A DNA stretch of 49,612 nucleotides from Planctomycetaceae bacterium (lineage in GTDB: Bacteria; Planctomycetota; Planctomycetia; Pirellulales; Thermoguttaceae), in NCBI GenBank assembly GCA_031268995.1, contig JAIRWK010000064.1, positions 1-49,612 on the forward strand. The letters run 5' to 3'. The stretch's first letter is position 1. The number at the start of each line of letters is the position of its first letter. The notes under the pieces were generated by a model, which worked only from the letters and a program-made list of their open reading frames with translations, did no database searches and was not told the origin of the DNA. Below, piece after piece: positions 2,960 to 42,925 of this stretch. The translations under genes were made by a program, and so were the position numbers.

Positions 2960-3062
2960 TATACTCAAGTTACTTTAAAATTCATGGAGCTGGACACGCA
3001 AGCATAACAACGTGAAGCGGTTGTTCAAGGGCGAAGCCTATCGCCCTACCGGCTACGGAATA
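2960..3062 (+). mobile_element. family-A ~104-bp MITE-like element, full copy ('+' means it reads TATACTGAAGC...TTTTAAAATTCCTGAAGCTG...CAACAACGTGAAGCGGTTGTTCAAGGGCGAAGCC...GGCTACGGTATA)
   Basis: Direct alignment to the other copies. Termini tatactcaag / ctacggaata. Confidence 0.85.
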
Positions 3063-4290: not shown

Positions 4291-4393
4291 TATGCCCAAG
4301 CTATTTTAAAATTCCCGAAGCTGTACACGCAAGCGTAGCATTGCGAAGCGATTGTTCAAGTGTGAAGCCTATCGTTCTATTGGCTACGGTATA
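4291..4393 (+). mobile_element. family-A element, full but diverged copy
   Basis: tatgcccaagctattttaaaattcccgaagctg...ggctacggtata. Confidence 0.8.
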
Positions 4394-4658
4394 AATCACT
4401 TTTGGTTGTGCCAGTTTCGGCATAGCAGGTGATATTTTTTCTTTAATAATTGCCAATAAACAAGATATATGTGAAAGGTTCCCGCGTTGAGGTATTTCAC
4501 GATCAAATCGATAAACTTTTGTTATTTTTCGTATTTTTTCTAATACAAATAATCGTTATAACCGATATACGTGTGCCGCATTCCGTTTTCAGGAATTTTG
4601 GCGGGTTGCGGTGTGTGTGTGTTTCCTAGCCGGTATAATTCAACAGTTAATTTTTATT

Positions 4659-5456
4659 ATGTCATACGGTTTATACATTTCGTCAGAGGGTGCGATGTCT
4701 CAAGATTACAGGCTTGCGACTATTTCGAATAATATTGCCAACATAGAGACACCCGGATTTAAGCGTGAACTTGCGATGCAGATGGCGCGTCATACGGAGT
4801 CGGTTGCTATTGGCGAAGTTGAATTTGGGACGGGGTTGATAACTGACATTGGCGGCGGTGTTCATACTATTGGCACACACACGGAATTTTCGCAAGGTAC
4901 AATCAAACCAACCGAAACCAAATCTGACCTCGCAATACAAGGCGAAGGTTGGTTTAGAGTGAGGGACATGTCCAACGACGAAATTTTCTTGACTCGCGCG
5001 GGTACATTTCAAGTTGATCGCAACGGGGCATTTGTTTCGGAGTGGGGGCGGAGCAGATTTCAATTGCTTGATGTTGACGGTGAACCTGTTGCCCTAGCTG
5101 ATCCGAACTCGAAAAATTGGACGATTACTGACGATAACGTATTGCAAGACGTGGGAGTAGGACGGTTACAGCAAATCTCAATGGTTAAACCGGCAGATTT
5201 GAAGCAATTGGTCAAAACTGGCGAAAATGTTTACCGAATTGACGCTCCCGAAGACCAGCAACTCTACGCCGAAATCGAACCAAACGAACGCCAAAGAATA
5301 AGAGAAGGTCATCTCGAAATGTCAAACACAAATCCCTCAACAGAAATGATCGAAATGATCGTCGCCTCGCGCGCCGTCGAAACAAACGTAAAAATGATCC
5401 AAGCACAAGACGAAGCAACCGGAAACCTAATTTCACGAGTACTACGAATCGCCTAA
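4659..5456 (+). CDS. flgF: flagellar basal-body rod protein FlgF
   Basis: N-terminus MSYGLYISSEGAMSQDYRLATISNNIANIETPGFKR and C-terminus GHLEMSNTNPSTEMIEMIVASRAVETNVKMIQ are the conserved rod-protein termini. ATG at 4659 is preferred over the GTG at 4611. Confidence 0.85.
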   Translation: MSYGLYISSEGAMSQDYRLATISNNIANIETPGFKRELAMQMARHTESVAIGEVEFGTGLITDIGGGVHTIGTHTEFSQGTIKPTETKSDLAIQGEGWFRVRDMSNDEIFLTRAGTFQVDRNGAFVSEWGRSRFQLLDVDGEPVALADPNSKNWTITDDNVLQDVGVGRLQQISMVKPADLKQLVKTGENVYRIDAPEDQQLYAEIEPNERQRIREGHLEMSNTNPSTEMIEMIVASRAVETNVKMIQAQDEATGNLISRVLRIA

Positions 5457-5468
5457 CCATACTAAAGC

Positions 5469-5520
5469 TATACCGGAGCCGGTATGGGCGAAGCCTATTA
5501 CTTATATTGGCTTCGGTATA
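5469..5520. mobile_element. family-A mini-copy (52 bp; both termini, interior deleted)
   Basis: tataccggagccggtatgggcgaagcc...ggcttcggtata, between flgF and flgG. Confidence 0.7.
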
Positions 5521-5547
5521 ATTTCACTTTAATTTTTTTGATCAAAA

Positions 5548-6354
5548 ATGCCATTTCAGACTATTTACTCATCTGGTACCGGAATGCTCGGTATGGAGAA
5601 GAAATTGAACACGATAGCTCATAATTTGTCGAATGTTGAGACGACGGCGTACAAGAAGCAACGTGTTAATTTTGAGGATTTGTATTATGACAATTTGCGT
5701 TATCCGGGTTCGCAAGATGTGAGTAGTGAGTTTGCGGCGACTGGTATTGCGATTGGTGTTGGTACACGTGTTACAAGTGTTCAGACAAATTTTTCTGAAG
5801 GTTCGCTTTCCGAGACTGGTCGTGATCTTGATATTGCAATTGCGGGCGAAGGATTTTTGCGGGTGAGAGACCCTTTGTCGGATGCAAATTTTTACACACG
5901 TGCGGGAAATTTAAGTGTCAATGCTAACGGGTTACTTGTTGTTGGCAGTGCGCACACGGGACGACCTCTTGATCCTGAAATTGCGATTCCGGCGGGTGTA
6001 CAGAAAGTGCAAATTTCCGATGACGGTGCCGTTTACGTCGTGCAAGACGGCAACGTAAACGCATTGCAATTGTTAGACAGAGTGCAACTTGCAACTTTCA
6101 TTAATCCTGAAGGTTTATTGCGTGTCGGGGAAAATATGTATCGAGAAACCGAATCTTCCGGTGTTGCGGTGTTGGGTGATCCGGGGATAAATGGAATCGG
6201 CACTTTCAAAGCTGGTTATCTTGAAATGTCAAATGTTGCGCCGGTTATTGAGTTGATTGACATGATTACCTCGCAACGCGCTTACGAACTAAACAGCAAA
6301 TCAACGCAAACAGGCGACCAAATGTTGCAAACCGTCATAAGTATTAAACGGTAA
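5548..6354 (+). CDS. flgG: flagellar basal-body rod protein FlgG
   Basis: LNTIAHNLSNVETTAYKKQRVNFEDL at the N-terminus. GYLEMSNVAPVIELIDMITSQRAYELNSK at the C-terminus. 268 aa, typical FlgG size. Confidence 0.9.
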   Translation: MPFQTIYSSGTGMLGMEKKLNTIAHNLSNVETTAYKKQRVNFEDLYYDNLRYPGSQDVSSEFAATGIAIGVGTRVTSVQTNFSEGSLSETGRDLDIAIAGEGFLRVRDPLSDANFYTRAGNLSVNANGLLVVGSAHTGRPLDPEIAIPAGVQKVQISDDGAVYVVQDGNVNALQLLDRVQLATFINPEGLLRVGENMYRETESSGVAVLGDPGINGIGTFKAGYLEMSNVAPVIELIDMITSQRAYELNSKSTQTGDQMLQTVISIKR

Positions 6355-6375
6355 TTTCAAAACAGCTTGAGTATA
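6354..6375 (-). mobile_element. family-A terminal fragment (22 bp)
   Basis: atttcaaaacagcttgagtata fills the flgG-flgA spacer and abuts the flgA ATG (gagTATAATG). Confidence 0.6.
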
Positions 6376-7629
6376 ATGAAAAAACTTTTTAATCAAATCA
6401 GTATTTTTTGTGCCATTATGTTTGCGGTGAATTTTATGTTTGCTGCGGAGATTAGGTTCAATGTTGAAGCGCGTGTTAGTGGGGTGTTGGTTAGGCTTGG
6501 TGATGTTTCTGAAATTATTTCCGATTCGAATGCGGAATCAACACGATTAAAATATGTTGTACTTTTTCCTGCGCCGCAAAAGGACGAGCCGCGAATTATA
6601 AATGTAACAGAAATTCGTGATTTACTTATGCGTCTTGGAGTGAATGTGCTTGAGCATAATTTTACGGGGGCAAAAAAAATTACAATTTCAAATACCGATA
6701 CCAATTTGTATTCTGCAAATTCGAATATTGTTTTTGCAAACTACCAAGATAACAAAATAATACAAGCAGATTTGACCGCGCCAAATATTACCAACACTAA
6801 CACCAACACGCCAAAAAACACGCCCTCCCCTAACCGTGCGGCAAAAAAGCAAGCCGGTTTATCATTGCAAAATATTTCGCCGGAACTTATAAAACATGTG
6901 GAGTCGCTTGTTGCCGAATCGATACGTATTCACCTTCGCCAACGTTTCGCCGCAATCGTACCTAACCAACAACCGGCATGGAATGTTTCATTGACACTCT
7001 CGCGTGAGCAGACGTTGGCATTGACAACGAACGGGCAAATTGATGCGATTGACGGCGGTATTGAGCCGTTTGTCGGGAAGCAGAAATTTCAGATCAAATT
7101 GCAACGGGTTGATTCGAATACAAATCAAAATGTAGTTGTTGTGGTTGATGCGAATTTGATTCCGGTTACGTGTTGTGTGGTGGTGATTCGCAATTTGCCC
7201 AAAGGATACGTTATCAACGAATCCGATGTCAAAATCGGCGAATGCGAAGGCACAAATTACAACGGCAACCAAGATAAAAGCAGCGAATATTTCATTAACA
7301 CAAACGATGTGATCGGCAAAGAAACTACTGGTAATTTGCGAGCAGGAAGTGTGATTACCGCCGACAAAATTAAACGCCCAACATGGATACACAAAGGCGA
7401 CGTAGTTACAATTTTGGCAAAAAATAACGGTGTAATAATTCGCACGGTAGGAATCGCCAAATCAGACGGAGCCGAAGGCGATACAATTTTCGTTACAAGA
7501 ATTGACCAGAGCAACGATTCAACAAACCGAAAACGTAACAACCGCAAACAATCATCGGCAGAAGTTGTGGCAATGATAAGCCAACCCAAAGTTGTAGAAA
7601 TAAACGCAACCCCGATTTCAATAAAATAA
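6376..7629 (+). CDS. flgA: flagellar P-ring assembly chaperone FlgA (long form)
   Basis: Signal/TM N-terminus. C-terminal SAF-like module VIGKETTGNLRAGSVITADKIKRPTWIHKGDVVTILAKNNGVIIRTVGIAKSDGAEGDTIFV. Position between flgG and flgH. ATG at 6376 (the ORF track uses TTG at 6367). Confidence 0.75.
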   Translation: MKKLFNQISIFCAIMFAVNFMFAAEIRFNVEARVSGVLVRLGDVSEIISDSNAESTRLKYVVLFPAPQKDEPRIINVTEIRDLLMRLGVNVLEHNFTGAKKITISNTDTNLYSANSNIVFANYQDNKIIQADLTAPNITNTNTNTPKNTPSPNRAAKKQAGLSLQNISPELIKHVESLVAESIRIHLRQRFAAIVPNQQPAWNVSLTLSREQTLALTTNGQIDAIDGGIEPFVGKQKFQIKLQRVDSNTNQNVVVVVDANLIPVTCCVVVIRNLPKGYVINESDVKIGECEGTNYNGNQDKSSEYFINTNDVIGKETTGNLRAGSVITADKIKRPTWIHKGDVVTILAKNNGVIIRTVGIAKSDGAEGDTIFVTRIDQSNDSTNRKRNNRKQSSAEVVAMISQPKVVEINATPISIK

Positions 7630-7636
7630 AATCGGT

Positions 7637-7740
7637 TATACCGAAGCCGGTATGGGCGGTAGGCTTCGCCCTCGAACAACCGCTTCACATTGTTGCGCTT
7701 GCGTGTTCAGCTTCAGGAATTTTAAAACAGCTCGAGTATA
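7637..7740 (-). mobile_element. family-A element, full copy
   Basis: tataccgaagccggtatgggcggtaggcttcgccctcgaacaaccgcttcacattgttgcgcttgcgtgttcagcttcaggaattttaaaacagctcgagtata. Confidence 0.9.
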
Positions 7741-7796
7741 TTCAATAACCAATCCTATCACCTGTACCGACTGCGGTATAACTTTTTTATTAGAAA

Positions 7797-8483
7797 ATGA
7801 CTTATTTGTTTAGAAATTTATTTATTTTGTGTTTGTGTATGAATTTTTGTTGCGCTAATTTTGTGTTGGCGCAATCGGGTTCGCTTTCGGGTTCAACGAC
7901 ATTGCGGGCGGGTGAAGGTCGTCCGTTTACGATGGCGGAGGGTTCTGATTTGTACAGACCTGCACCGCGTCAAAAGGCGTATCAATTGCATGATATAATT
8001 TACATCAACGTTAAAAAAACATGGAACTACACGAACAACGCAACACTTACAAAAACGAAAAAAGTTGAGGCGGAAGCGAGGCTGACGTATTGGTCGAAGT
8101 TCAAGGGATTATTCAAAATGCCGACAAGTGCGGCGGGGGAAGCGTTACCGGAGATTGGCGGCGAGCTTGATCACAAAACACAAAATAAAGGAAATTTGAC
8201 GCATGCGGAAGCGATTGAGTTTGTGATAGCGTGTGAGATAGTTGACATTTTGGACAATGGCAATTTATACATTGACGGAACAACAAAAACTCAAATCGGT
8301 GAAGAAGGCAAGGTGATGTATGTTGGCGGATTTGTGCGACCTGATGATATTTCGGCAGACCATAGTATTTCGGCGGACAAGGTCTTGCACTTCAAGTTCA
8401 CAGACGTACCAAGCGGACAAATCTACGACACACAAAGAAGACCATGGGGAACAAAAATCATCGAACAACTAAAACCAATGTAA
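7797..8483 (+). CDS. flgH: flagellar L-ring protein FlgH
   Basis: Signal peptide, then LYRPAPRQKAYQLHDIIYINV ... GNLYIDGTTKTQIGEEGKVMYVGGFVRPDDISADHSISADKV, the typical FlgH core. Confidence 0.85.
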   Translation: MTYLFRNLFILCLCMNFCCANFVLAQSGSLSGSTTLRAGEGRPFTMAEGSDLYRPAPRQKAYQLHDIIYINVKKTWNYTNNATLTKTKKVEAEARLTYWSKFKGLFKMPTSAAGEALPEIGGELDHKTQNKGNLTHAEAIEFVIACEIVDILDNGNLYIDGTTKTQIGEEGKVMYVGGFVRPDDISADHSISADKVLHFKFTDVPSGQIYDTQRRPWGTKIIEQLKPM

Positions 8484-8494
8484 TCACAAAACAA

Positions 8495-8552
8495 AAAAAC
8501 ACCTCCCCCCTTCCCTTGTCCCTTTCGTCCTTTTTGTCCTTTTTGTCCCTAA
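8495..8552. repeat. phased GTCC(C)-T-tract block (family F, GTCC subtype)
   Basis: ccttgtccctttcgtcctttttgtcctttttgtccct: GTCC words at ~9-10-nt spacing. Similar blocks at 13355-13440, 23945-24005, 27356-27400 and 31320-31345. Confidence 0.7.
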
Positions 8553-8554
8553 AC

Positions 8555-8657
8555 TATGCTGAAGCTACTTTAAAATTCCTGAAGCTGAACACGCAAGCGC
8601 AACAACGTGAAGCGGTTGTTCAAGGGCGAAGCCTATCGCCCTACCAGCTTCGGTATG
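8555..8657 (+). mobile_element. family-A element, full copy
   Basis: tatgctgaagctactttaaaattcctgaagctgaacacgcaagcgcaacaacgtgaagcgg...cagcttcggtat. Confidence 0.9.
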
Positions 8658-8682
8658 ACAACAAGTCCTACAATTACACAAA

Positions 8683-10380
<1,698 letters not shown>

Positions 10381-10544: not shown

Positions 10545-10649
10545 TATACCGAAGCCGGTATGGGCGGTAGGCTTCGCCCTTGAACAACCGCTTCACGTTG
10601 TTGCGCTTCCGTAATCAGCTTTACTGAATTTTAAAATAGCTTGGGCATA
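10545..10649 (-). mobile_element. family-A element, full copy
   Basis: tataccgaagccggtatgggcggtaggcttcgcccttgaacaaccgcttcacgttgttgcgcttccgtaatcagc...gcttgggcata. Confidence 0.9.
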
Positions 10650-13242: not shown

Positions 13243-13345
13243 TATACTGAAGCTGTTTTAAAATTCCTGAAGCTGGACACGCAAGCGTAACAACGTGAAG
13301 CGGTTGTTCAAGGGCGAAGCCTATCGCCTTACCGGCTACGGTATA
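13243..13345 (+). mobile_element. family-A element, full copy
   Basis: tatactgaagctgttttaaaattcctgaagctggacacgcaagcgtaacaacgtgaagcgg...ccggctacggtata. Confidence 0.9.
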
Positions 13346-13440
13346 AATATCAGAGACACTAGGGACACAAGAGACGCAAAGGACATTGAGGACAAAATAA
13401 ATTGGGGCTGTGTTTTGTCCTTTTTGTCCTTTTTGTCCCT

Positions 13441-13754
13441 CATATCTCTGCTGTTCTTCTGTGTGTTTTTTGTTTTTCTTTTATATTTTTTTTGACGCTT
13501 TTTTTAGGCAGGTTTGGCAATCTTGGAATTCTTTGGACTTTACGATGGCGGCTCCTGATTTTAAGCGGTTTACTACATCATGCCAAAATTCACTTAAAAA
13601 TGTTGCGTGGAATTTTTTTGATCTGGCTGAAATAAATTCGTCTTGAATGTGTTTGAATAATTTTGCCAAACTTAATTTTATCGCCTCCGATACCGAATAC
13701 ACAACCGCCTCGCCACAAATAACCAATACACCCACCCCTAACACAACACCAAAC
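13441..13754 (-). repeat. direct repeat DR-b: displaced copy of the GTPase gene 3' end plus ~35 nt downstream
   Basis: Aligns base for base with 14421-14729 (offset ~975-980, a few substitutions, one small indel). Confidence 0.9.
13481..13744 (-). pseudogene. orphan 3' fragment of the GTPase gene (duplicate of its last ~83 codons)
   Basis: 87-aa ORF ...GVLVICGEAVVYSVSEAIKLSLAKLFKHIQDEFISARSKKFHATFLSEFWHDVVNRLKSGAAIVKSKEFQDCQTCLKKASKKI differs at 3 positions from the C-terminus of ORF 14456-16414. Confidence 0.8.
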
Positions 13755-13779: not shown

Positions 13780-13986
13780 TTAGAAGTTCTCTTTATATTC
13801 CTTCATTGCTAAGTTACTCAGTTCTTTTACAGACAGATCGTCGAATAAATTCTTTTGCCATTCCGTATAATCGAATGGCTCTCGAATAATCAGACTTATA
13901 AAGCGTTCTGCTTCTACTCTGCCTAAATTATTTATCAATACCTTCATCCCTTCATTCCGTAAAGCCATTTCCGCATACATAATCAT
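13780..13986 (-). CDS. small protein translationally coupled to the PIN gene (putative antitoxin/partner)
   Basis: 68 aa. Its ATG overlaps the PIN stop (ATGA at 13983-13986). No family recognised. Confidence 0.55.
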   Translation of the reverse strand: MIMYAEMALRNEGMKVLINNLGRVEAERFISLIIREPFDYTEWQKNLFDDLSVKELSNLAMKEYKENF

Positions 13987-14423
13987 TCCTCCAATTCATT
14001 CATAAAAGTTAAAGGGTTTATTATTTTTATATCATTTAATTTTAAATTGAATAATTGTTTGTCCGTTGTTATGAAATAATCAGAATTTGTGTAAACACTA
14101 CATGCAATATGCAACGCATCTTTTGTTCTTATATTTTTAATTTTGAGATTTTCCGCATATTCAATAATTCGAGCATTTTCAACACAACAAATTTTTGCAA
14201 CACTTTTCCAATCATATACTACATTACGCCTATCATCAAATTTATTTTGATTATTTTCATATTCCAAAATATAAGACCAAACTAATTCATACTCATCATT
14301 TAATATACCCTGTTGTATAAATAATTTTGCTTCCGTTTCAAGTCTTATTTTTAACTGATTTTGATCATCAAACGGTCGATTAAATGTACAAATATCTAAA
14401 TAAAGTCTCAATTTTTTCTTCAT
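13983..14423 (-). CDS. PIN-domain protein (VapC-like ribonuclease toxin candidate)
   Basis: Start taken at MKKKLRLYLDICTFNRPFDD (ATG complement at 14421-14423). Acidic residues at the N-terminus (LDIC), 'DALHIA' and 'TTD' motifs fit a PIN fold. The longer ORF-track start (14561) reads through the GTPase 3' end. Confidence 0.65.
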   Translation of the reverse strand: MKKKLRLYLDICTFNRPFDDQNQLKIRLETEAKLFIQQGILNDEYELVWSYILEYENNQNKFDDRRNVVYDWKSVAKICCVENARIIEYAENLKIKNIRTKDALHIACSVYTNSDYFITTDKQLFNLKLNDIKIINPLTFMNELEE

Positions 14424-14729
14424 ATCAGTATATTTTTGTGTTTTTTGTTTTTCTCTTATATTTTTTTTGACGCTTTTTTTAGGCAGGTTTGGCAATCTTG
14501 GAATTCTTTGGACTTTGCGATGGCGGATCCTGATTTTAAGCGGTTTACTACATCGTGCCAAAATTCACTTAAAAATGTTGCGTGAAATTTTTTTGATCTG
14601 GCTGAAATAAAATCGTCTTGAATGTGTTTGAATAATTTTGCCAAACTTAATTTTATCGCCTCCGATACCGAATACACAACCGCCTCGCCACAAATAACCA
14701 ATACACCCGCCGCCAACACGACACCAAAC
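14421..14729 (-). repeat. direct repeat DR-a (functional 3' end of the GTPase gene plus spacer)
   Basis: Partner of 13441-13754. Confidence 0.9.
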
Positions 14730-16414
14730 CATTGCCCCGTAATTTTTGAACCAATAATAAGACCGCCAACAATAAATAAAACCGTAAACACCGGTCGCAC
14801 CAACGTTACCACCAAATCCAACAACTTAATCAATCCCACCCAAACCAAATTTTTCGCCGCCCATGTTGTTAAATTTTGCCTCAACGCATTGTCAAAATTG
14901 ACCTCCACCGGATCCAACTCACTAAGCACAACCTTTGCCCGCGCCAAAATCTCAACACGCCTACCGCCACTAACTAAACTCAACATCTCACGCCTCAACA
15001 CCAAATTGTCCGTCTCCGCAAGACGCTCAATATAACCAAAAATCGTCTCAATAAAACCAACAACAACACCCTCCTCACTCTCCCTCAAATATCGTAACAA
15101 ATTATCTTGACCATAACCCGTATTGCCGACACGTGAAAATAATTTTTGCACAATAACTCCCCACAACTTGCTAAACGGATAAACTAACTTGCCGCCAAGT
15201 ACACGATAAACATCATTTATTCTACGCAACCAAACCGCACGCTTTGCCTCATTCCACCACGCCCACATCCCGCCGGCAAGCACCGAAATGGGCATCGCCG
15301 GTAACTCCATCTCCAACTTGTCATCAATACCCTCAATCGCCGCCAACGCCGCCCCAAATTGATTCGACGCAACCTCCACCCGCCGCAAAAAAGACGGTAA
15401 ACCATTCGACTCGTCAATAATCACTCGAATAGCACCAATAAGCGTTTGAGATTTGATCCGGTCAAAATGTAACTCCGTAAATATCCGACGCAAATCCACC
15501 ATCGCCAATACAGATTGCGGGAGTTGCTCTTGAACGAATGTTTCGTGTTGTTGCGATTGCTTGTTCAGATTCAAAGTAGATTTAGTATCATTGATCTCTT
15601 CAGTACCCTTCCCGTCTTGCGGCAATTGATAAAACGGCAACCGTAATTCCGCTGCCTTGCCCCCGTCAAACGGCGCAGCAAGCACAGCAATCGGAACACA
15701 ACCAGTTTCATCACAAAATTGCTTCAACCAAATCGTAATATGCTCAACATCACGCTCAATATCAACCATATTAAAAATCACAATAACAGGTTTTGCCGCC
15801 TCCGCAGCTTCGCGGAAAAAACGGCGAACCGCCGCATCGTTGTATTTTTGACTTGTAAGCACGGCAATTATCACATCCGCCGCATTGCGCACTCCACGCG
15901 CCCGCACCCAATTCAACTCGTTGTCCGAATCAATATCCGGCGTGTCAAAAATCAAAAGCCGCTCCTCAAGACGATTGTCAACCTTCCAAAAAAGTTGATG
16001 TTCACGGCAAGATTCAAGAGGTTGCTCCGACCGCGACCACTCAACAAGATTAAAATGACAAAAATTACGCCGCAAAATATCCAAAGAATTCGGAATCGAA
16101 CCCGACACAACACAAACAGGATGCTTCGTACCCGATGCCCGATGGTCAACTCCACTGCAATAATTGCCGACAAGATGATTAAATATTACAGACTTGCCCG
16201 TATTGGTACCGCCCATCACAGAAATAATTAAATAAGCACGATCACCAACTTGCGGTAATAACTTGCACGAAAGCAAATCATACCAATCCTCACCCTCCGC
16301 CAACGAAACACCACACGCACCAACTACCCGAATAAGTTGACCAACCACACGATCAATCTCAATCGCTAATTCCGAAAGCTCCCCAAATAAACCCACTCTA
16401 TCAATCAAATCCAT
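14456..16414 (-). CDS. membrane-anchored P-loop GTPase (dynamin/Era-like G domain, C-terminal TM hairpin)
   Basis: G1 GGTNTGKS, G3 DTPD, G4-like NMVD. C-terminal hydrophobic helices (LVWVGLIKLLDLVVTLV, FTVLFIVGGLIIG, VVLAAGVLVICGEAVV). Contains a repeat-derived linker (see 15495-15589). Confidence 0.7.
   Translation of the reverse strand: MDLIDRVGLFGELSELAIEIDRVVGQLIRVVGACGVSLAEGEDWYDLLSCKLLPQVGDRAYLIISVMGGTNTGKSVIFNHLVGNYCSGVDHRASGTKHPVCVVSGSIPNSLDILRRNFCHFNLVEWSRSEQPLESCREHQLFWKVDNRLEERLLIFDTPDIDSDNELNWVRARGVRNAADVIIAVLTSQKYNDAAVRRFFREAAEAAKPVIVIFNMVDIERDVEHITIWLKQFCDETGCVPIAVLAAPFDGGKAAELRLPFYQLPQDGKGTEEINDTKSTLNLNKQSQQHETFVQEQLPQSVLAMVDLRRIFTELHFDRIKSQTLIGAIRVIIDESNGLPSFLRRVEVASNQFGAALAAIEGIDDKLEMELPAMPISVLAGGMWAWWNEAKRAVWLRRINDVYRVLGGKLVYPFSKLWGVIVQKLFSRVGNTGYGQDNLLRYLRESEEGVVVGFIETIFGYIERLAETDNLVLRREMLSLVSGGRRVEILARAKVVLSELDPVEVNFDNALRQNLTTWAAKNLVWVGLIKLLDLVVTLVRPVFTVLFIVGGLIIGSKITGQWFGVVLAAGVLVICGEAVVYSVSEAIKLSLAKLFKHIQDDFISARSKKFHATFLSEFWHDVVNRLKSGSAIAKSKEFQDCQTCLKKASKKI
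15495..15589 (-). mobile_element. diverged family-A element embedded in frame in the GTPase CDS
   Basis: Core cttgaacgaatgtttcgtgttgttgcgattgcttgttcagattcaaa matches the family-A consensus at 36 of 47 hand-aligned positions. Translated as LNLNKQSQQHETFVQEQ, parallel to LKLNTQAQQREAVVQGR read from intergenic copies. Confidence 0.65.
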
Positions 16415-19317: not shown

Positions 19318-19421
19318 TATACCGAAGCCGGTATGGGCGGTAGGCTTCGCCCATGAACAACCGCTTCACGTTGTTGCGTTTGCTTGTTCAGCCTCAGGAA
19401 TTTCAAAACAGCCTGAGCGTA
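19318..19421 (-). mobile_element. family-A element, full copy
   Basis: tataccgaagccggtatgggcggtaggcttcgcccatgaacaaccgcttcacg...gcctgagcgta. Confidence 0.9.
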
Positions 19422-19424
19422 ATG

Positions 19425-19760
19425 GACAAAAGGGGATTTTTAACACGAAAGGTACAAAACAAAAGCGGGAATGGGACTTCCGTTCCTGAGAACGGAGCTT
19501 TCATTCCCGAAAATGGAGCTTTCATTCCTGAGAATGGAGCTTTCATTCCCGAGAACGGAGCTTTCATTCCCGAAAATGGAGCTTTCATTCCCGATGATTT
19601 TTCCTCCAGACTCTAAAATTTTCTCCACGCACCAAAAATTCCCCTTTTCGTATTTTTAGTCCTTTTTGTGCCTTTGGTGTTCAAAATCCCTCTTTTCGTA
19701 TCTTTCGTCTTTTTCGTACCTTTAGTGTAAAAAATTTCCCCCTTCGTGATTAAACGAAAT
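19425..19760 (+). repeat. family-H dispersed repeat (carries the expanded 21-bp array and T-tract blocks)
   Basis: Reverse-complement relationship to 47395-47617 (shared cgaaaggtacaaaacaaaagc, ggagctttcattccc, cagactctaaa). Confidence 0.65.
19473..19598. repeat. 21-bp tandem repeat, 6 units (GGAGCTTTCATTCCCGAAAAT)
   Basis: Units start at 19473 (degenerate), 19494, 19515, 19536, 19557 and 19578. Open in several frames on both strands, which indicates a non-coding repeat. Confidence 0.9.
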
Positions 19761-20026: not shown

Positions 20027-20129
20027 TATGCTCGAGTTGTTTTGAAATTCCTGAAGCTGAACACGCAAGCGTAAAATCGCGAGGCTGTTGTTTGAGGGTA
20101 AAGCCTACTGCCTGTATTGGCTTCGTTAT
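20027..20129 (+). mobile_element. family-A element, diverged full copy
   Basis: tatgctcgagttgttttgaaattcctgaagctgaacacgcaagcgtaaaatcgcgaggctgttgtttgaggg... Confidence 0.8.
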
Positions 20130-20168: not shown

Positions 20169-20274
20169 TATAACAAAGCTACATTAAAATTCCTGAAGCT
20201 GAACACGTGAAACGCAACATCGCGAAGCGTTTGTTCAAGAGGCGAGGCTTAATGCCCAAACCGGCTTCGGTATA
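20169..20274 (+). mobile_element. family-A element, diverged full copy
   Basis: tataacaaagctacattaaaattcctgaagctgaacacgtgaaacgcaacatcgcgaagcgtttgttcaag...ccggcttcggtata. Confidence 0.8.
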
Positions 20275-21916: not shown

Positions 21917-22018
21917 TATGCCATAGCCGGTAAGGCGATAGGCTTCGCCCTTGAACAACCGCTTCACGTTGTTACGCTTGCGTATCCAGCTTCGGGAATT
22001 TTAAACAGCTTGAGTGTA
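21917..22018 (-). mobile_element. family-A element, full copy
   Basis: tatgccatagccggtaaggcgataggcttcgcccttgaacaaccgcttcacgttgttacgc...gcttgagtgta. Confidence 0.9.
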
Positions 22019-22105
22019 CGGCAATGGCGACAAAATCGCACAAAGGTTTTTAAATATCCTTCTTCGCCTTTTTCGCCTTCGCGGTGTTTATCTTTCGCGA
22101 ATGCG

Positions 22106-22222
22106 TATACCGAAGCTGGTATACCGTAGCCGGTAAGGCGATAGGCTTCGCCCTTGAACAACCGCTTCACGTTGTTACGCTTGCGTGTCCAGCTTCTGGA
22201 ATTTTAAAACAGCTTGAGTATA
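22106..22222 (-). mobile_element. family-A element, full copy with a duplicated left terminus
   Basis: tataccgaagctggtata + ccgtagccggtaaggcgataggcttcgcccttgaac...cagcttgagtata. Confidence 0.9.
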
Positions 22223-23914: not shown

Positions 23915-24049
23915 CTACGTCCTTTGCATTCACCCAATCGGAATAAGATTTCACATGTCCCTACTGTCCTTTATGCCTTTCACGTCCTTTGTGTCCCTTT
24001 TGAATAATTACCCTAAATAGTATAAAAAATAGATAGAAAAATTTTAATT

Positions 24050-25345: not shown

Positions 25346-25440
25346 TATACTGAAGCTACTTTAAAATTCCTGAAGCTGAACCCGCAAGCGCAACAACGTG
25401 AAGCGGTTGTTCAAGGGCGAAGCCTACCGGCTACGGTATA
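25346..25440 (+). mobile_element. family-A element, copy with a small internal deletion
   Basis: tatactgaagctactttaaaattcctgaagctgaacccgcaagcgcaacaacgtgaagcggttgttcaagggcgaagcctaccggctacggtata. Confidence 0.9.
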
Positions 25441-27082: not shown

Positions 27083-27202
27083 ATATACCGGCTACGGAGT
27101 ATACCGAAGCCGGTATGGGCGGTAGGCTTCGCCCATGAACAACCGCTTCGCGATGCTACGCTTGCGTGTCCAGCTTCGGGAATTTCAAAACAGCTTGGGT
27201 AT
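27083..27202 (-). mobile_element. family-A element, full copy with a duplicated left terminus
   Basis: tataccggctacggagtata + ccgaagccggtatgggcggtaggcttcgcccatgaac...cagcttgggtata. Confidence 0.9.
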
Positions 27203-27314
27203 ATCTCTTGCATCCCAGATCGATCCAAACGATTCGGCGGTTGCACAACGCGCCGCAATTGGGTAAGATAATACCACAAACATAATTTTCGACAAGTATC
27301 CCATGCAAACATCT

Positions 27315-27355: not shown

Positions 27356-27604
27356 ACCGTTTACTTTGTCCCTTATGTCCTTTGTGTCCTTCATATCCTT
27401 CAAAAATATCACAAAAAAAAATAAAAACTATTTGCGCAATCAAGAGTGCAATACGCTTGAGAAAAATCGGGTATATTGTAACTCTTGGCGATTACAATAA
27501 AATATTGCCCTTTGATGAAACGCCCATTGTTGTATGGGGCGTTTATGCAGCGACTGGTATTGGCGAAGCGTACCAAACCAAATTTAACCAAAATTTAAAC
27601 TAAA

Positions 27605-30285: not shown

Positions 30286-30388
30286 TATACCGTAGCCGGT
30301 AAGGCGATAGGCTTCGTCCTTGAGTAACCGCTTCACGTTGTTGCGCTACCGTAATCAGCTTCGTGAATTTTAAAACAGCTTGAGTATA
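30286..30388 (-). mobile_element. family-A element, full copy
   Basis: tataccgtagccggtaaggcgataggcttcgtccttgagtaaccgcttcacgttgttgcgc...cagcttgagtata. Confidence 0.9.
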
Positions 30389-31310: not shown

Positions 31311-31349
31311 CCGGTAAGGCATTGTCCCTCATATCCTTTTTACCCCTTA

Positions 31350-31463
31350 TATACTCATCGCACTATGAAATTCAGTTTTTATTTTTTTGGCAGGATTTTA
31401 TTATATCCTGACGATCCTGTTATCCTGTCTTAAAAAAATTAATTTCATAGTAGCTACGGTATA
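31350..31463 (+). mobile_element. family-C ~115-125-bp palindromic element
   Basis: tatactcatcgcactatgaaattcagttttt...caggat...atcctg...aaaaaattaatttcatagtagctacggtata. The termini resemble the family-A TIR. Confidence 0.75.
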
Positions 31464-31487: not shown

Positions 31488-31590
31488 TATACCGCAGCCG
31501 GTAAGGCAATAGGCTTCGCCCATGAACAACCGCTTCACGTTGTTACGCTTGCGTGTCCAGCTTCGGGAATTTTAAAACAGCTTCAGTATA
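31488..31590 (-). mobile_element. family-A element, full copy, abutting the dinG-fragment ATG
   Basis: tataccgcagccggtaaggcaataggcttcgcccatgaacaaccgcttcacg...cagcttcagtata|atg. Confidence 0.9.
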
Positions 31591-32289
31591 ATGTCTGATT
31601 CGTTTACATTTTTTAAGACGCAAATAGGGATGTCTGTAATTGACACGTTGCAGCTTGGGAGTCCGTTTAATTATTTTGAGCAAGTTACGCTTGTGATTGT
31701 GCGTGATGCGCCGTTACCTGATTCGCGTGAGGATATTTTGCGTTCTTATTATGTTGCGGCGATTCGGAAATATCTTGCGGAGACGGGCGGCGGTGCGTTT
31801 GTGCTTTTTACTTCGTATAGTTTGCTCAAACGCACGGCATCTGATTTGACATCGTGGCTTGTTGAACGTGAAATGCCGATATTGGTTCAAGGCGATGGTG
31901 TTCCGCGAAACGAAATGATTCGCCAATTCAAAAATTCAAACCGTGCTGTTTTATTTGGAACGGATAGTTTTTGGCAAGGTGTGGATGTACCTGGTGATTC
32001 GCTCAGAAATGTAATCATTACGAGGCTTCCTTTTCTAGTGCCAAATCAACCTGTTGTTGAAGCTAAAATTGAATCTATAAAAAATCGGGGCGGCAATCCC
32101 TTCAACGAATACCAATTGCCAACCGCAATCCTAAAATTTAAACAAGGCTTTGGCAGATTAGTTAGGACAAAATCGGATCGCGGACTGGTAGTTGTACTTG
32201 ACCCTAGAATACATGCAAAATCTTACGGCAAAAATTTCATAAAAGCCCTGCCGCAATGCAAAACCAGATTCGATCAAACAACAGACTAA
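31591..32289 (+). pseudogene. dinG: DinG/Rad3-family helicase, C-terminal (helicase_C_2) fragment only
   Basis: LGSPFNYFEQV...VLFTSYSLL...VLFGTDSFWQGVDVPGDSLRNVIITRLPF...KQGFGRLVRTKSDRGLVVVLDPRI covers only motor domain 2. The frame opens at 31576 inside a family-A repeat, and the ATG abuts the repeat end. Confidence 0.6.
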
Positions 32290-33193: not shown

Positions 33194-36100
33194 GTGGGTG
33201 TGTTCATTGATTCTAACAATACTAAATATTATCTCAGTGGTGATACGTATGGTGATGATAGTGGTACAGACTATGCTTCCAGCAATATTGGGTTAAGTAG
33301 CGGCGGTATTACTCTTACTTCTGCTGAAAAAGCGCAGCTTGGTGCGATTTTCTCGAATGACAAAAGTTTGAACTTCGACTTTGGTACAAGCTCCATTTCT
33401 GTTATAAATTCATCTGAAACTGGGGCATTGACGGCGGGATTTGGTTATGTAAATACTGATGCTTTTGGCGGTACTCTTAACGCAACCGGCGCAAGTGGTG
33501 AAGAGACTCCTGAGTATTCCGTTACGGCTTCTGGCGGTTCTGCGTTTGGTTTTGTGTTTGCCAAAGGGACTAGCGTTCTAAGCAGCGGTGTTGCGAATTT
33601 ATCAAATGCAACAATTGATCTTGTCGGAAGTGGAGCAACGATTACTGTTTCAAATTCAGGTGACGACAGCAATTCGTTTGGTTTTGTTGCCGGTGATTTG
33701 AAAAAATCGACAATAAAACTTGGTGAGATTACGTCCCAAATTACCGGTACTGGCGGCGATGAAACGAGTTTGATTCATGGATTTATTGCGGGTGATGTTA
33801 GCAAAAATAGTAAGATTGCACTTTTAGATGTTACCGCTAAAACAACCTGTCAAGCCACAAGTGGTAATGTTTTGGCGGTTGAGTTAAAAGAAATTAGAGG
33901 TTGTGTTGAAACAGGGAATATTGTTGCAATTGCCAACTCTGGTGATGCAACAGGATTTTCCGCATTGGCAATTTTAGGAAAAGTAAAATTGGGGGACATT
34001 AATGTAACTACAACAACAAGTGGTTCGGCACAAGGTGTTGTTATTGGTCGTCATGCCGAATTTGACGTGCCAGAATCTCCATCAGCTAATTCCGCAAAAA
34101 TTTCAGGTCATATCAATGTTGGTGATATTGTAATAAATTCTGTCGGCAACGGAACGGGATTTTTTATTCGCCACGATATTACTAATGCGAGTCAGTGGAA
34201 GAACAATCTGCCGTTGCCGATTGTTCTCTCTGGTAAAGTCGAACTCGGTAAAATTAACATAAAGTCACAAAATCATGCAATTGGTTTCCTCATAAGTAAT
34301 GGTAATTATGCCTCATCAATTAATGCACCTGAAATCACTGGTACTGGTACTGCTACTGCTAATGTTACGTTTGGGGACGACATTGCAGTAGTAAGTACCG
34401 GTACTGGAACCGGAGTGGCGATAGGAATTTCTCTCGGAGATTTTACCGGTGACCCAAAGGCGGATCTTGCCTCTGCCCGAAGTGGTAGTATTGTTTTAAA
34501 AGGCGATATTACGGCTACATCCGCGAACGATTACGCACTTGGTATTCACGCCGGACAATTGGAAAGTCTTGAAGTCAATACGAATATTTCAGCGGAAACA
34601 AGTAAAAATAATGTCAATTATTATGCTTACGGCATTTACACTCGCGGATACACAGAAGGTGCTAGTAATTCTGATGTGACTAAAGATAAAAATAGCGTAA
34701 TCAGTATCACAGGCGGTTCAATTTTTGCAACAGCAACCAGCGCAGCAACCGCCGCCAGTATCATAATGGATTCGACATGTGACGATGTTGTCAATATCGA
34801 TGCCGGAACAACAAGTACAGCGTGGACCAATAATGACGGTACAAATGATCGAGCGTTTACGTTGATCGGCGTGGAAACATTGAATGTCAAGCGAGATACC
34901 CAATTGGTAGCCGGTAGTAAACGCGGAACCGCGACCGTTGCCGACAAAGTTGCGACTACGAATGTTGATGAAGATAAAACGCTTTCAGTTTACGACACAT
35001 TCTTCAACGGCGGCTCACAGAAAAAGATAGGCAAAGGAACTATCTCTATCATAAGAGACGATAGTAGTACTGGTACAGGAACTTTATCGAAACTCGAAAT
35101 CGCCGGAGGAATTTTTGAGTTAATAGGAAGTACAAAAAATGCCAAAACTACGCTTCTCTTTGCTGAGGATAGTTCAAATGCCCAAGACATTATCAAAATT
35201 GGTGGAGGCGCAACATTGAAAATTTCAGGTGAGAATGTTGCTTTAATCAATGTAGCACAGGTAGCTGCATACTTAGATTTTACGAACGAACAAGCCATTT
35301 ATGAGACAAATCCACATCTTAACATGACGGTTGACGGCGGAACAGTTGAAGTGATCGGTGCAGAAAGTTTATATGCAGCCGGTCTCAATGTTTTCATCGG
35401 TAACAGCGGCGCAATAATTAGTGTTACAAATAAAGAGGAGGAGTCCTCAAGAGTTGTTGTTAGCGATATTGCGGCAACTACAAGTGCAACCACTCCTAAT
35501 TTGACGAAAACTGGTAACGGAAAACTGGAAATTCTGTACGGTTTTGATCTCGAAAAAGGAACAATTAATGTCAACGGAGGAACTTTCGAATTTAATAACA
35601 GCAGTGTTAATACTACACCCTTCACAACTTCTGCTAAAGTCAAAAGTATTGTTGTTGACGGAGAAGATGCTGTTCTTGATCTTAAAGCATACTCTTATGT
35701 TACAGTTCATGAAACCAATGAAGCCGCTTTGACAATTAAAGACGGGGGTACGGCAAAAGTCGATGTTTTATCAAGACTTGTTAATAGCACGTGGGATACC
35801 ACAGCAAGTCCCGTATTTAATGTTGCAATTAACGGTGGAACTCTTGAAGTTTACGATGGATCAAAATTGGCTTCAGAGACGAATTTTACTGAAGACCAAG
35901 TTGCCACTCTATTGAACCCGCATTTAGCTGGTGTTACAACAACCGTAACAAATACGGCAACAATCAATGTCGGTGAAGGTATTACTTTCGATCCAGGTGT
36001 TGTGAAAACCAAAACAAACGACAGCACAGCCAGTATAACAAAAATCGGAGACGGAACACTTCGTATTCTATACGATTTTGATTTCGCAGATGGAACAATT

Positions 36101-39100
36101 AATGTCAACGGAGGAACTTTCGAATTTAATAACAACGGAGTTAAAGCTAACCCCGCAACTTCTGCTAAAGTTAAAAGTATCGTTGTTGATGGAGAAAATA
36201 CTGTTCTTGATCTTAAAGCATACTCTTATGTTACAGTTTATGAAACCAGTGAAGCCGCTTTGACAATTAAAAATAATGGTACGGCAAAAGTCGATGTTTT
36301 ATCAAGACTTGTTAATAGCACGTGGGATACCACAGCAAGTCCCGTATTTAATGTTGCAATTAACGGTGGAACTCTTGAAGTTTACAACGGAGAATCTTCG
36401 GATGATACCAATATATTGAACCCGCATTTAGCTGGTGTTACAACAACCGTAACAGATACGGCAACAATCAATGTCGGTGAAGGTATTACTTTCGATCCAG
36501 GTGTTGTGAAAACCGAAGCAAACAACAGTACAGCCAGTATAACAAAAATCGGAGAAGGAACACTTCGTATTCAATACGGTTTTGATCTTGGCGGCGGCAA
36601 TATTGATGTTAAGAATGGAACATTGGCAATCAATCCCGATACAAAAGATCATCCTCTGACAGTTAATGCCAATGTTAAACTGAACGCTAACAATTTAATT
36701 ATCGGCGAAGCCGACGACAATAAGGCGCAATCAATTACCATCGGAAGTATCTGCGGAAGTTCCGAAAGTACAACAATTATTAACGCTGGTGATTCATTGA
36801 TCATCACAAAAGGCAGTACTTACGGCGGAAAAATAACCGGCGGCGGTAATTTAACCGTAGCCAGCGAAACATTGACGTTAAGCAATAAAGATAACAATTA
36901 TTCCGGCACAACAACACTCAACGAAAACGTTAATTTGATAATTTCAAACGGCGGTACTTACAGCGGAAAAATAACCGGTGCCGGTGATTTAACCGTAACC
37001 AGCGGAACATTGACGTTAAGCAGTACAACTAACGATTACTCCGGTACAACAACACTCGGCGGCGAGTTGTCCGTAACCATAGACAGTGCCTTGAGCGCGA
37101 ATAGTAATTACGTTGTCGGAAATAATGGTAAATTGTCAATCAATGATTCCGCACAAACAATCAAGACTCTTAACGGCACAGACGGCGAAGTTAATCTGGG
37201 AACAACCGGTAATTTGACAATTTCAAACGGCGGAAAATTCGACGGAGAATTAACCGGTGGCGGCACTTTAACCATATCAGGCGAAGAATTGACCTTGACC
37301 GGAAGTTATTCCAAAACAGCTAAATTCGCCGTCAATACCGGAACTCTTTTACTTGATCATTCAACATCTGAAGAATCTAAAAATATTACGTTTAGTAATT
37401 CATTGACCGGAAGCGGAACACTTGCAGTTAAGTTGAATGCTTTAACCGATACGTTTACTTTAGGAACAGATACCATAGATACCGGTTTTAGCGGAACCAT
37501 TGAAATGAAAAATGGAATTTTTGCAACAAGCAATTTCACACAATTGACAAACGTAGGACTCAAATTAAACAGCGATTCAAGCACTACAATTGACGAGAAT
37601 CTATCCATTTCAAAATTAACCCTCAACGGCGGACAAATCAATTTTGTCGCGGCTCCCGTAACTCCAACCGCGAAATTAACCGTTACCGATCTTGTGATTG
37701 GTAACGACGGCGGAATTATAGGTGTTGATCAAACATTAGACATTGTTACGACGAATACACCACCGTCAACACAAAATATTTTCGATTATTGGAATGATGA
37801 CGCTAATTACCAACAACAACTTATTGCTGTTGAAGGTACCATCACCAGAGACGGAATCATCACACCTGATTCGGTCGCCAGCATCGAACAATCACGAAAT
37901 CTTGTCAACGGCGGTGTCGCAAAATTTAATTACAATGTCAGTGTCGATAGCGATAGCTCTTCCGCCCAAAAAGGAATCTATCTCGGTTACGGTTTGGTTG
38001 AAATAGAGAGTCCAGCGGATAAGACCGTTACACTAGATACGACAAACGCAACCAATCCGAAATTGACCGCGAAATTAACCGGAAACGGCGGTTTCAAATT
38101 CATCGGAACCGGCAGCACGTCGCAAGTTGAAATCGGTAACAGTGACAGCAATTATTCCGGTAACACTGAAATTGATAATCTGAAAATAAAAATGCTTGAC
38201 GATAAAGCATTCGGAACAGTCGCCAATTTATCACTCACAAATAACGCCGAACTTGATATGAATTCCAAGACCGCAAGCGTTGCACAACTTAACGGAGATA
38301 ATGATACAAAAATTAATGTCGGTGATTTAACCGTTACAAACGGCGGCAATTTTGCCGGACAATTAACCGGCATCGACAGTAATTTAACCATAACTGGCGG
38401 AACATTGGCATTAAGCAATAATGCTAACGATTATTCCGGTACAACAACACTCAACGGCGGTAATTTGTCCGCAACCGTAACCAATGCCTTGAGCGCGAAT
38501 AGTGATTACGTTGTCAATGGTGGTAAATTGTCAATCAATAATTTCGCACAAACAATCAAGACTCTTAACGGCACAGGCGGCGAAGTTAATCTTGGAACTG
38601 GTAGTTTGACAATTTCAAACGGCGGAGCCTTCAGCGGAAAATTTGCCGGTAGCGGTAATTTAACCGTAGATGCCGGAACATTGAACTTGACCCAAAACTA
38701 TTTCGCAACCGGCGGCGTTACCATAAACTCCAATGGAACACTTTTGCTCAATCCATCAACCGGAAATGGTACGTTTAATAATTTATTGACCGGAAGCGGA
38801 AAACTTGCGGTTGGTTTGAGTGATACCGACAAGACATTCACTTTAGGAGCAGGTGCCGGAACTGGTTTTACCGGAACTCTTGAGATGAACAAAGGAATTT
38901 TTGCAACAAGCGGTTTCTCACAATTGATAAACGTAACCCTCAAATTAAATGATAATTCACGAATCAAAATCGACAGCAATCTGTCCGTTGCAAATTTAAC
39001 CCTCAACGGCGGACAAATCGAATTTGCCGCCAATCCATTAACTCCAACCACAAAATTAACGGTTGCGAATTTGAATATTGCAAACGGCGGAAAAATAAAG

Positions 39101-41473: not shown

Positions 41474-42925
41474 TTATTGTAACGAAAAATATTGATTGAA
41501 TTCTGTGTTTGAGGTATCGACGCATTTTATTCTTTGGATGGCGGTACGGAAACGAGCGTCGTTTCTGATGGCGTTAAATCTCTGCGAATTGATGAGGTTT
41601 ATTGGTTTGGGCGAAATTAGAATTATGTCGGCACCGGGATCAATTTGCAGTAACGCTTCTAAAATTGCTCTTGGTAAATTGTCTTTGATTTCATGCCTCG
41701 CCGTCGCAAGCCGCCGCAAAACACTCTCAACAAGCGGTAAACAAATCGGTCCCGATAAACTCTCCTCGTCCGGTTTGCTTGTTGCGAAAAATAAATTGCA
41801 ACCGCCGCGCCGTGTCATGTCACAAACTAACGTTGCAGCAAAACTTAACGCAAGCTCAAAATTGCCGGACTCCACTTGATTTGACTCCAACTGCTCATCA
41901 TAAAGATCAAGCAAAACCGCACAATCATAATTTTGTTTTATCTCAAATTGACGGACGAACGGTTGCCCGTGTCTTGCGGACGCTCGCCAATGAATCCATT
42001 TTATCGTGTCGCCAGGTAACCATTGCCTTACACCTAAAAATTCGCCGGTGCCTCTGCTTGGTCTGAATCTGTATCGTTGCCGGTTTATTGCCGCTTCGGT
42101 TCGGCGTGTTTGCCACCTCGACGATAAATGACCAACCTTCGGAAACACATAAAACTCATCACCATTCAACCCATCAGATAAACACATCGAATGCCGAAAA
42201 AAACCAAACGGAAATCGCGTCGAAATTGTCATAGGACCGAATTTATATTTACCACGTTGCGGCAACTTGCCCGCATAACTTTTTTGAATTACACTGTGTT
42301 GCCCAATATACTCAAAATAAACCGCCGGTTCATATACCATTTCCGATACAGATGATAGGTTTTGTCCTTGAACAACCGATTCAAGTTGTTGCGATTCCGC
42401 GTTCAACTTCAAATCAGCTTTATTATAAAATACCATTTCAGACGGATTCTCTCCCTCAACAGATTCGTCGTGTATTGATTGGATTCTATCGCTAACAACA
42501 ACACCCCAACTTCCGGCATTTCTTCGTTTCCGCTGTTTTGTTTTTTTTGCGTTGTTGGGCAAATTTATTCCACCGCCGTTTGGCGTATTTTTGGAATTCA
42601 ATTGCCCTGATTGTCCAGACTCGGAAACGGATTCAAGATTGACATCAGATTTATTGTAACAATTATTATCACAATACTTGCTCAACCCAATATGCACGAT
42701 AAAAGGATCGCCCGCAAAAACACGTTCGGGTAATTTGCGCCTTACACTAACACCACGCAACGAATAACGCCCAACCCAACCAGACGTTGGTAATATAGCA
42801 AACAAAGCCGCCGCTAAAAGCAACATCGGATTAACTTCCCGCACAATTGAACCTATCATAAAAACAATTGTAACAAAAAGAAAAATCACTCCCTCACGGC
42901 TGAATGTCGTTTTGATCTTCATCAT
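41474..42925 (-). CDS. DUF58 (vWA-like) family protein with a long low-complexity/repeat-derived insert
   Basis: Two N-terminal TM helices. GTGEFLGVRQWLPGDTIKWIHWRASARHGQPFVRQFE is the DUF58 signature. ~130-aa insert upstream of it (see 42333-42427). Confidence 0.75.
   Translation of the reverse strand: MMKIKTTFSREGVIFLFVTIVFMIGSIVREVNPMLLLAAALFAILPTSGWVGRYSLRGVSVRRKLPERVFAGDPFIVHIGLSKYCDNNCYNKSDVNLESVSESGQSGQLNSKNTPNGGGINLPNNAKKTKQRKRRNAGSWGVVVSDRIQSIHDESVEGENPSEMVFYNKADLKLNAESQQLESVVQGQNLSSVSEMVYEPAVYFEYIGQHSVIQKSYAGKLPQRGKYKFGPMTISTRFPFGFFRHSMCLSDGLNGDEFYVFPKVGHLSSRWQTRRTEAAINRQRYRFRPSRGTGEFLGVRQWLPGDTIKWIHWRASARHGQPFVRQFEIKQNYDCAVLLDLYDEQLESNQVESGNFELALSFAATLVCDMTRRGGCNLFFATSKPDEESLSGPICLPLVESVLRRLATARHEIKDNLPRAILEALLQIDPGADIILISPKPINLINSQRFNAIRNDARFRTAIQRIKCVDTSNTEFNQYFSLQ
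42333..42427 (-). mobile_element. family-A element embedded in frame in the DUF58 CDS
   Basis: tataccatttccgatacagatgataggttttgtccttgaacaaccgattcaagttgttgcgattccgcgttcaacttcaaatcagctttattata is colinear with the consensus (3 mismatches in the 31-nt core). Translated as LKLNAESQQLESVVQGQNLSS. Bracketed by ataccatttc at 42334-42343 and 42430-42439 (96-nt period). Confidence 0.8.

Follow-up and report, generated by a model that had tools for sequence, protein, structure and literature searches.

The window analysed here is a 49,612-nucleotide (nt) stretch of the genome of a Planctomycetaceae bacterium (contig JAIRWK010000064.1, assembly GCA_031268995.1). It contains numerous copies of a short dispersed repeat, designated family A, one of which lies in frame within the gene of a dynamin-like GTPase. 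This host gene (positions 14456-16414, minus strand) is intact and encodes a 652-amino-acid (aa) membrane-anchored GTPase of the BDLP/mitofusin type, with hundreds of homologues in metagenome-assembled genomes (MAGs) of Planctomycetaceae. Pfam analysis of the product revealed MMR_HSR1 and a weak Dynamin_N match. The top Foldseek matches were BDLP (2j69/2j68), Drp1, IniA and MFN1, all with a probability of 1.0 and with low TM-scores (0.2-0.35), so that the protein can be called dynamin-like only as regards its fold class. The insert derived from family A occupies positions 15495-15589 (minus strand), which correspond to residues about 276-306 of the GTPase (DTKSTLNLNKQSQQHETFVQEQLPQSVLAMV).

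The similarity of this segment to the repeat was analysed with an nhmmer profile built from 18 intergenic copies of family A, from which the copies located within coding sequences (CDSs) had been excluded. The profile matched the GTPase insert at 15499-15585 (envelope 15496-15590) with a score of 25.4 bits (E = 3.3e-7 for the window); the element has the "+" orientation of the model and is translated from the minus strand. Codon-shuffled CDSs of the window (1.41 Mb) served as the null and scored at most 10.8 bits, with no match as high as 15. The match spans model positions 5-99 of 103, i.e. both arms and the core, as had been claimed from hand alignment in the initial annotation of this DNA. 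The 47-mer quoted there corresponds to 15529-15575 and matches the consensus core of the family at 36 of 47 positions. The quoted peptides were likewise right: ...STLNLNKQSQQHETFVQEQLPQS... in the GTPase, YAEATLKFLKLNTQAQQREAVVQGRSLSPYQLRYD in the intergenic copy 8555-8659 and ...LKLNAESQQLESVVQGQNLSS... in the DUF58 gene described below. The GTPase copy differs from the family consensus at 33 of the 95 aligned positions (approximately 65% identity), and these differences are distributed 13/10/10 among the three codon positions, without third-position bias.

Comparison with homologous proteins revealed that residues 275-305 of the GTPase (NDTKSTLNLNKQSQQHETFVQEQLPQSVLAM) face a gap in 26 of the 26 aligned homologues. 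The two nearest of these, P0002 (72% identity in the alignment) and P0003 (66%), both lack the 31 residues, and at the DNA level their sites are uninterrupted: GAA GTT GCG GAT TTG CGG in P0002 (L001) and GAA GTT GTG GAT TTG CGG in P0003 (L002), compared with the filled site of the window, ATC AAT GAT [ACT AAA ... ATG GTG GAT] TTG CGT. The insert adds 31 codons with no stop or frameshift, and the gap in the homologues coincides with the nhmmer envelope to within about one codon. The presence or absence of the segment in orthologues had been set as the test of insertion by the initial annotation; the protein alignment and the two empty sites show that the segment 15495-15589 represents an insertion relative to all homologues. 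The insert is carried by no other protein of the 90% cluster of the GTPase, and no insert-bearing orthologue was detected in the databases searched.

A second in-frame insert derived from family A was identified in a gene encoding a 483-aa DUF58 protein (41474-42925, minus strand; Pfam DUF58). It occupies positions 42333-42427 (minus strand), corresponding to residues ~167-198 (YNKADLKLNAESQQLESVVQGQNLSSVSEMVY), and was recovered besides the GTPase copy when the profile was run across the window (match at 42334-42413, E = 3.3e-14; differences from the consensus at 23 of 95 aligned positions). None of 19 homologues (maximum identity 77%) has the insert (~31 residues), which bears out the earlier statement that the DUF58 gene carries a peptide of this origin. 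A peptide-profile search of the six-frame translation of the window revealed no further diverged in-frame copies. The empty sites, read in L003 and L006, are CCG TAT GAA CCG (P0122) and TCT TAT GAG CCG (P0123), and the filled site of the window is TTT TA[T AAT AAA GCT ... GAA ATG GTA TA]T GAA CCG. Compared with the two empty sites, these junctions fit insertion at a TA dinucleotide with duplication of the TA. Such target duplication is a property of the Correia element of Neisseria and of the pneumococcal RUP.

Two other lengths of target duplication were considered and rejected. A duplication of ~13 nt at the DUF58 site was dismissed since the GTPase copy has the same derived ...ATGGT... end without a flanking repeat, and also since the upstream motif is native in P0122. 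A 3-nt duplication (TAT/GAT) was dismissed since the right-hand TA of the intergenic copies is mostly followed by A rather than by T. At the DUF58 site (42390-42445) the native sequence upstream of the insert (TCTGAAATGGTAT) and the end of the insert that stems from the element (TCGGAAATGGTAT) agree at 12 of 13 positions, and this resemblance yields a duplicated SEMV(F)Y peptide motif. The upstream SEMVFY is native, P0122 having SEIMPY. The duplicated motif may stem from a preference of the element for targets similar to its terminal repeats, from later conversion, or from chance.

Alignment of the copies revealed that family A comprises a 103-nt element and a 104-nt variant. The ends form imperfect terminal inverted repeats of the TATACCGAAGC type (TATAC[C/T]GAAGC[C/T]G ... 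C[A/G]GCTTC[A/G]GTATA), in which 9-11 of 13 positions pair, and TA is present at both termini of every copy. Identity among the intergenic copies is approximately 90%. Folding analysis revealed only a few small local hairpins: the minimum free energy (MFE) of the intergenic copies has a mean of -28, and their RNA-fold z-scores have a mean of about -1 (range +0.8 to -3.9). The GTPase copy is without hairpins (MFE -13.6, z = +0.2). Family A is therefore better described as an element that resembles a MITE (miniature inverted-repeat transposable element), with terminal inverted repeats, small internal hairpins and a weak overall palindrome. It is shorter than 300 bp, contains no transposase open reading frame (ORF), has terminal inverted repeats and is present in many dispersed copies in both orientations. 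The initial annotation had likened it to the Rickettsia palindromic elements (RPEs), as a palindromic repeat inserted in frame; the in-frame insertion was confirmed for both the GTPase and the DUF58 gene, but the strong palindrome was not. An Rfam scan of the whole window gave nothing at gathering thresholds, which indicates that family A is not a described RNA family.

Of the six reading frames of the family-A consensus, two are stop-free, each encoding only 34 aa, and four contain stops. When the intergenic copies are read in the frame used inside the two genes, TAA occurs in about half of them, and thus family A is not kept open as a coding sequence. Unlike RPEs, it shows no sign of selection to encode a peptide.

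The GTPase and DUF58 copies have the same orientation and are read in the same frame. Both have a 9-nt deletion relative to the consensus, and at their distal ends the reading frame is that of the 104-nt type. Moreover, both carry the same non-consensus base at 11 positions, compared with ~2.7 expected under independence (calculated from the counts), and a public element-derived peptide (P0244) shares with them both the 3-codon gap and an Ala-to-Ser change. The two copies thus appear to derive from one older 95-nt subfamily, i.e. the 104-nt type minus 9 nt. If the TA is counted once, insertion of such an element would add a net 93 nt, equal to the 31 codons gained by both genes; the 104-nt type would give a net 102 nt, and the 103-nt type would shift the frame.

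In the structural model of the GTPase, the G domain (60-265) is followed by long helices, and the insert is placed between the last G-domain strand and the first neck helix, in accordance with its earlier description as a linker just after the G domain. Residues 268-301 have a predicted local distance difference test (pLDDT) value below 50 and no predicted secondary structure, and the homologues vary in length just upstream of the insertion site. The DUF58 insert is located in a low-confidence loop (154-194) between beta-strands, again with pLDDT <50 and no predicted secondary structure. Structure prediction, proposed earlier as a check, thus placed both inserts in length-variable, low-confidence predicted loops, and they are likely to be disordered.

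These observations indicate that the segment 15495-15589 is very probably a degenerate copy of the MITE-like family A, which transposed into the CDS of the dynamin-like GTPase after this lineage had split from its closest sequenced relatives. The source would have been the older 95-nt subfamily, inserting with TA target duplication and adding a net 93 nt (31 codons). A gene hit by the element would stay readable only if the insertion used one of the two stop-free frames and had a net length of 3n. The survivors would be those located in length-variable, probably disordered surface linkers that tolerate extra polar residues, i.e. the junction of the G domain with the helical neck in the GTPase and the loop between beta-strands in the DUF58 protein. 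Once inserted, the copy would no longer be under the constraint acting on a mobile element, and would have drifted to 65% identity with the consensus, with loss of the hairpins and without third-codon-position bias. Most likely, the peptide is a near-neutral loop that the protein tolerates, and not a new functional module; this fits the even spread of differences over the codon positions and the lost hairpins.

Several points weigh against this interpretation. Pfam scans of 29 ORFs of the window revealed neither a transposase family nor an autonomous partner. At present the GTPase junctions have GAT...GAT in place of TA...TA, and the homologues have GAT without TA at this position. These junctions cannot confirm a TA target, and the evidence for this step therefore comes from the DUF58 site and from the TA at the ends of all copies. 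The homologues used for the comparison of insertion sites are only 63-77% identical, and there is no clean, recent and unambiguous pair of filled and empty sites. No close relative carries the insert, as would be required for estimating the ratio of nonsynonymous to synonymous substitutions (dN/dS). The translation of the insert follows, by inference, from the intact frame. Finally, a low pLDDT value is expected for any segment without homologues in the alignment, and is no proof of disorder.

Among the alternatives, it is unlikely that the inserts have been co-opted, so that the extra loop, placed where the G domain hinges on the neck or in the DUF58 beta-sandwich, would now be functional and kept by selection. 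Such co-option would agree with the finding that both inserts are strongly diverged yet stop-free, and that the same hydrophobic KFL codons have disappeared from both, which are polar and rich in Q and S. However, the common deletion and the common bases are better explained by a single source subfamily, and neither a third-position excess in the substitutions nor, in the databases searched, an insert-bearing orthologue was found.

Somewhat less probable still is a real insertion into a dead gene, or one placed outside the mature product by RNase III-type cleavage of the mRNA, as in Correia transcripts. The contig bears signs of decay or rearrangement (the duplicated 3' end of the GTPase gene and the C-terminal fragment of a helicase gene), and RNase III cleavage at MITE terminal repeats has been reported (PMC10969869). 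On the other hand, the hairpins that RNase III would need are gone, and the 347 codons downstream of the insert have stayed open, with 66% identity to P0002 (79% upstream), although the insert itself has diverged by 35%. The window GTPase and P0002 are nearly equally distant from the outgroup P0003 (59% and 61% identity, respectively), which gives no sign of relaxed constraint or of rate acceleration in the former. The part of the DUF58 protein downstream of its insert is 77-83% identical to its relatives.

A native GTPase linker that merely resembles the repeat, by chance or as ancestral protein sequence, is highly improbable: the copy is only ~65% identical to the consensus and its site is a variable linker in this GTPase family, but such an origin is effectively refuted by the gap in all homologues, which coincides with the element boundaries, together with the uninterrupted DNA, and is opposed by the profile E-value of 3.3e-7, set against a null maximum of 10.8 bits, and by the same insert in the unrelated DUF58 gene. 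The reverse direction, in which family A arose from a piece of one host gene turned mobile, is equally improbable: the copies within CDSs do look older (65-76% identity to the consensus vs. ~90% among the intergenic copies), but outside this contig the segment is absent from both gene families, it keeps recognisable remains of both terminal repeats, and the source cannot have been two unrelated genes at once.

The degenerate family-A copies in the GTPase and DUF58 genes may be compared with several known systems. RPEs (Ogata et al. 2000, 2002, as summarised in PMC10969869) are also multi-copy, non-autonomous elements of ~100-150 bp, found between genes as well as in frame within unrelated housekeeping-type genes, always in the same frame, with the peptide added at a site compatible with the fold. 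Family A, compared by host and by anatomy, differs from them: all its carriers are MAGs of Planctomycetaceae, not Rickettsia, it has clear terminal inverted repeats, TA termini and a weak palindrome, its intergenic copies have no conserved frame (half contain TAA), and only 2 of ~24 copies in the window are intragenic. The terminal inverted repeats of the Correia element and RUP start with TA, as do those of family A. The two also resemble family A in size (~100-200 bp), in high intergenic copy number, including within operons, and in copies nested in or adjoining one another (PMC10969869). Compared in this way, by description, they are known mainly for regulation and gene disruption, not for the in-frame read-through seen with family A.

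Parallels for the fusion itself are ERIC (intragenic ERIC and other enterobacterial small mobile sequences: Delihas 2007, PMC2759123, as cited in PMC10969869), QMITE1 of Coxiella and the Anabaena MITEs, which are open-frame MITEs occasionally fused in frame with host ORFs. The present case differs in phylum and family, and in comprising two independent in-frame insertions with empty-site evidence from many homologues. According to a 2024 review (PMC10969869), in-frame fusions by intragenic MITEs (ERIC, BOX, QMITE1, Anabaena MITEs) are "not unusual", RPEs being the high-frequency extreme, so that the earlier remark that in-frame insertion is otherwise rare was overstated. Thus, in-frame insertion of elements is known (RPEs of Rickettsia, ERIC and others), while a case in Planctomycetes is apparently unreported; a full-text literature search for MITEs in Planctomycetes gave nothing relevant.

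The two genes provide a doubly replicated case of a mobile repeat made part of proteins. They also suggest a rule for the survival of intragenic MITEs, namely that the net length, with the target duplicated, is 3n, that the frame is free of stops and that the element lands in a length-variable loop. A more tentative proposal, which we consider possible but rather doubtful, is that this lineage hosts a genome-wide RPE-like process, in which a MITE subfamily of 3n net length (93 or 102 nt) with a stop-free frame repeatedly adds loops of 31-34 residues. In-frame family-A inserts affect 2 of ~45 genes of the window, and if this rate applied to a whole genome, several Mb in size, roughly a hundred proteins would be affected. 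If true, this would be a second, independent system in which selfish DNA makes protein segments, mechanistically more transparent than the first because of the terminal repeats and the target duplication.

Within the window, the profile detected 20 near-full and 6 partial matches to family A, in both orientations, which make up 4.8% of the sequence and occupy almost every intergenic spacer. The best match was an intergenic copy of the 103-nt type at 46829-46931 (plus strand; nhmmer E = 1.1e-35). Further intergenic copies on this strand were found at 22120-22222 (E = 2.2e-35; preceded by a partial duplicate of the terminal repeat at 22105-22121, detected with a tandem repeat finder), 31488-31590 (E = 5.2e-34), 21917-22017 (E = 8e-32), 30286-30388 (E = 2.8e-31) and 10545-10649 (E = 1.5e-30). 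The 104-nt type, the length class from which the CDS copies appear to derive, is represented by four intergenic copies, all on the plus strand: 7637-7740 (E = 3.3e-33; assigned also from its translation frame), 47225-47328 (E = 9.7e-33), 27100-27203 (E = 4.8e-32) and 19318-19421 (E = 6.7e-31).

On the minus strand, intergenic copies are located at 13243-13345 (E = 1.3e-35), 8555-8657 (E = 1.7e-34; open in the "coding" frame when translated, and lying within the spurious ORF 8444-8692), 42988-43090 (E = 3.3e-34; directly upstream of the DUF58 gene), 48986-49088 (E = 4.4e-33), 2960-3062 (E = 7.4e-33) and 4292-4393 (E = 3e-28). The copy at 25346-25440 (E = 3e-29) carries, according to the alignment, a different internal 9-nt deletion than the CDS copies, and that at 44542-44633 (E = 1.3e-27) is truncated at one end. 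Two diverged copies are present at 20028-20129 (E = 1.8e-21) and 20174-20274 (E = 5.3e-21).

Copies or fragments of family A occupy each spacer of a flagellar cluster (4611-8483; two genes of the FlgE/F/G-type basal-body rod/hook proteins, then flgA and flgH), where they are presumably co-transcribed with the operon. The copy at 31488-31590 abuts the ATG of ORF 31591-32289 (GTATA|ATG). This ORF encodes only the C-terminal domain of a DinG/XPD-type helicase (Helicase_C_2), and may represent a gene truncated at, or restarted from, a family-A insertion.

Outside the window, short ORFs derived from the element form 396 protein clusters in a representative library of public data, and the best 150 and best 120 matches of two large protein searches were all short spurious ORFs originating from family A. 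The annotated carriers of such ORFs are a handful of Planctomycetaceae MAGs (LBJ00, LBK06, LBL62, LBH59) and JGI samples. Hundreds of "hypothetical proteins" of Planctomycetaceae MAGs (P0247-P0435; 41-143 aa) correspond to translated intergenic copies and, judged from their sequences, are annotation artefacts. Family A thus yields hundreds of spurious annotations in public MAGs, and it also inflates the apparent number of lineage-specific protein insertions.

Two copies were detected in contig JAIRYX010000296.1 of a GTDB genome (isolate Gsp477_bin66; L005). A scan of a genome collection with a 22-nt core pattern of family A identified at least one locus, and the same pattern had no match in metagenome_contigs. 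In a peptide-based metagenome scan 457 stretches matched, none of which was confirmed by tblastn. No copy was found in ~59 kb of contigs from six relatives carrying orthologues of the GTPase or DUF58 genes. The presence of family A in few Planctomycetaceae MAGs, and its absence from these contigs, indicates that the family is confined to a narrow clade.

A further repeat involves the GTPase gene itself. Its 3' end, with the stop and the final ~90 codons, is present twice as a 293-nt direct repeat (13462-13754 and 14437-14729; 97% identity), which leaves an 87-aa pseudo-tail ORF at 13481-13744. The 682 nt between the repeats contain a weak PIN-domain ORF (13983-14561, minus strand) and a 68-aa ORF (13780-13986, minus strand), and have the appearance of a cassette of toxin-antitoxin-like type that entered the end of the GTPase gene by insertion or recombination. 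In three relatives (L002, L007 and L008) the GTPase gene is located downstream of ndk and cstA, and in the window its neighbours are a LemA gene and an uncharacterised 645-aa ORF; the gene order around it was rearranged in the repeat-rich lineage.

The window also contains other repeats. A 9-nt pyrimidine-rich unit (TTGTCCTTT and variants) forms short intergenic arrays, often adjoining family-A copies, at 8507-8559, 13406-13458, 23955-23998, 27357-27400, 31322-31356 and 19639-19730. Between divergent genes (19448-19615), a 21-nt unit (GAATGGAGCTTTCATTCCCGA), itself a small palindrome, is repeated in tandem in 6-8 copies, and this array is followed by one with a 48-nt period (19634-19747). A perfect (AG)34 tract (9444-9511) lies inside the ORF of a 565-aa glycosyltransferase (8683-10380), and is a candidate slipped-strand phase-variation switch, in which the gain or loss of one unit would shift the frame. 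Finally, the gene of a 2714-aa autotransporter (33194-41338) contains extensive internal DNA repeats, with units of 138-300 nt that are 63-94% identical.

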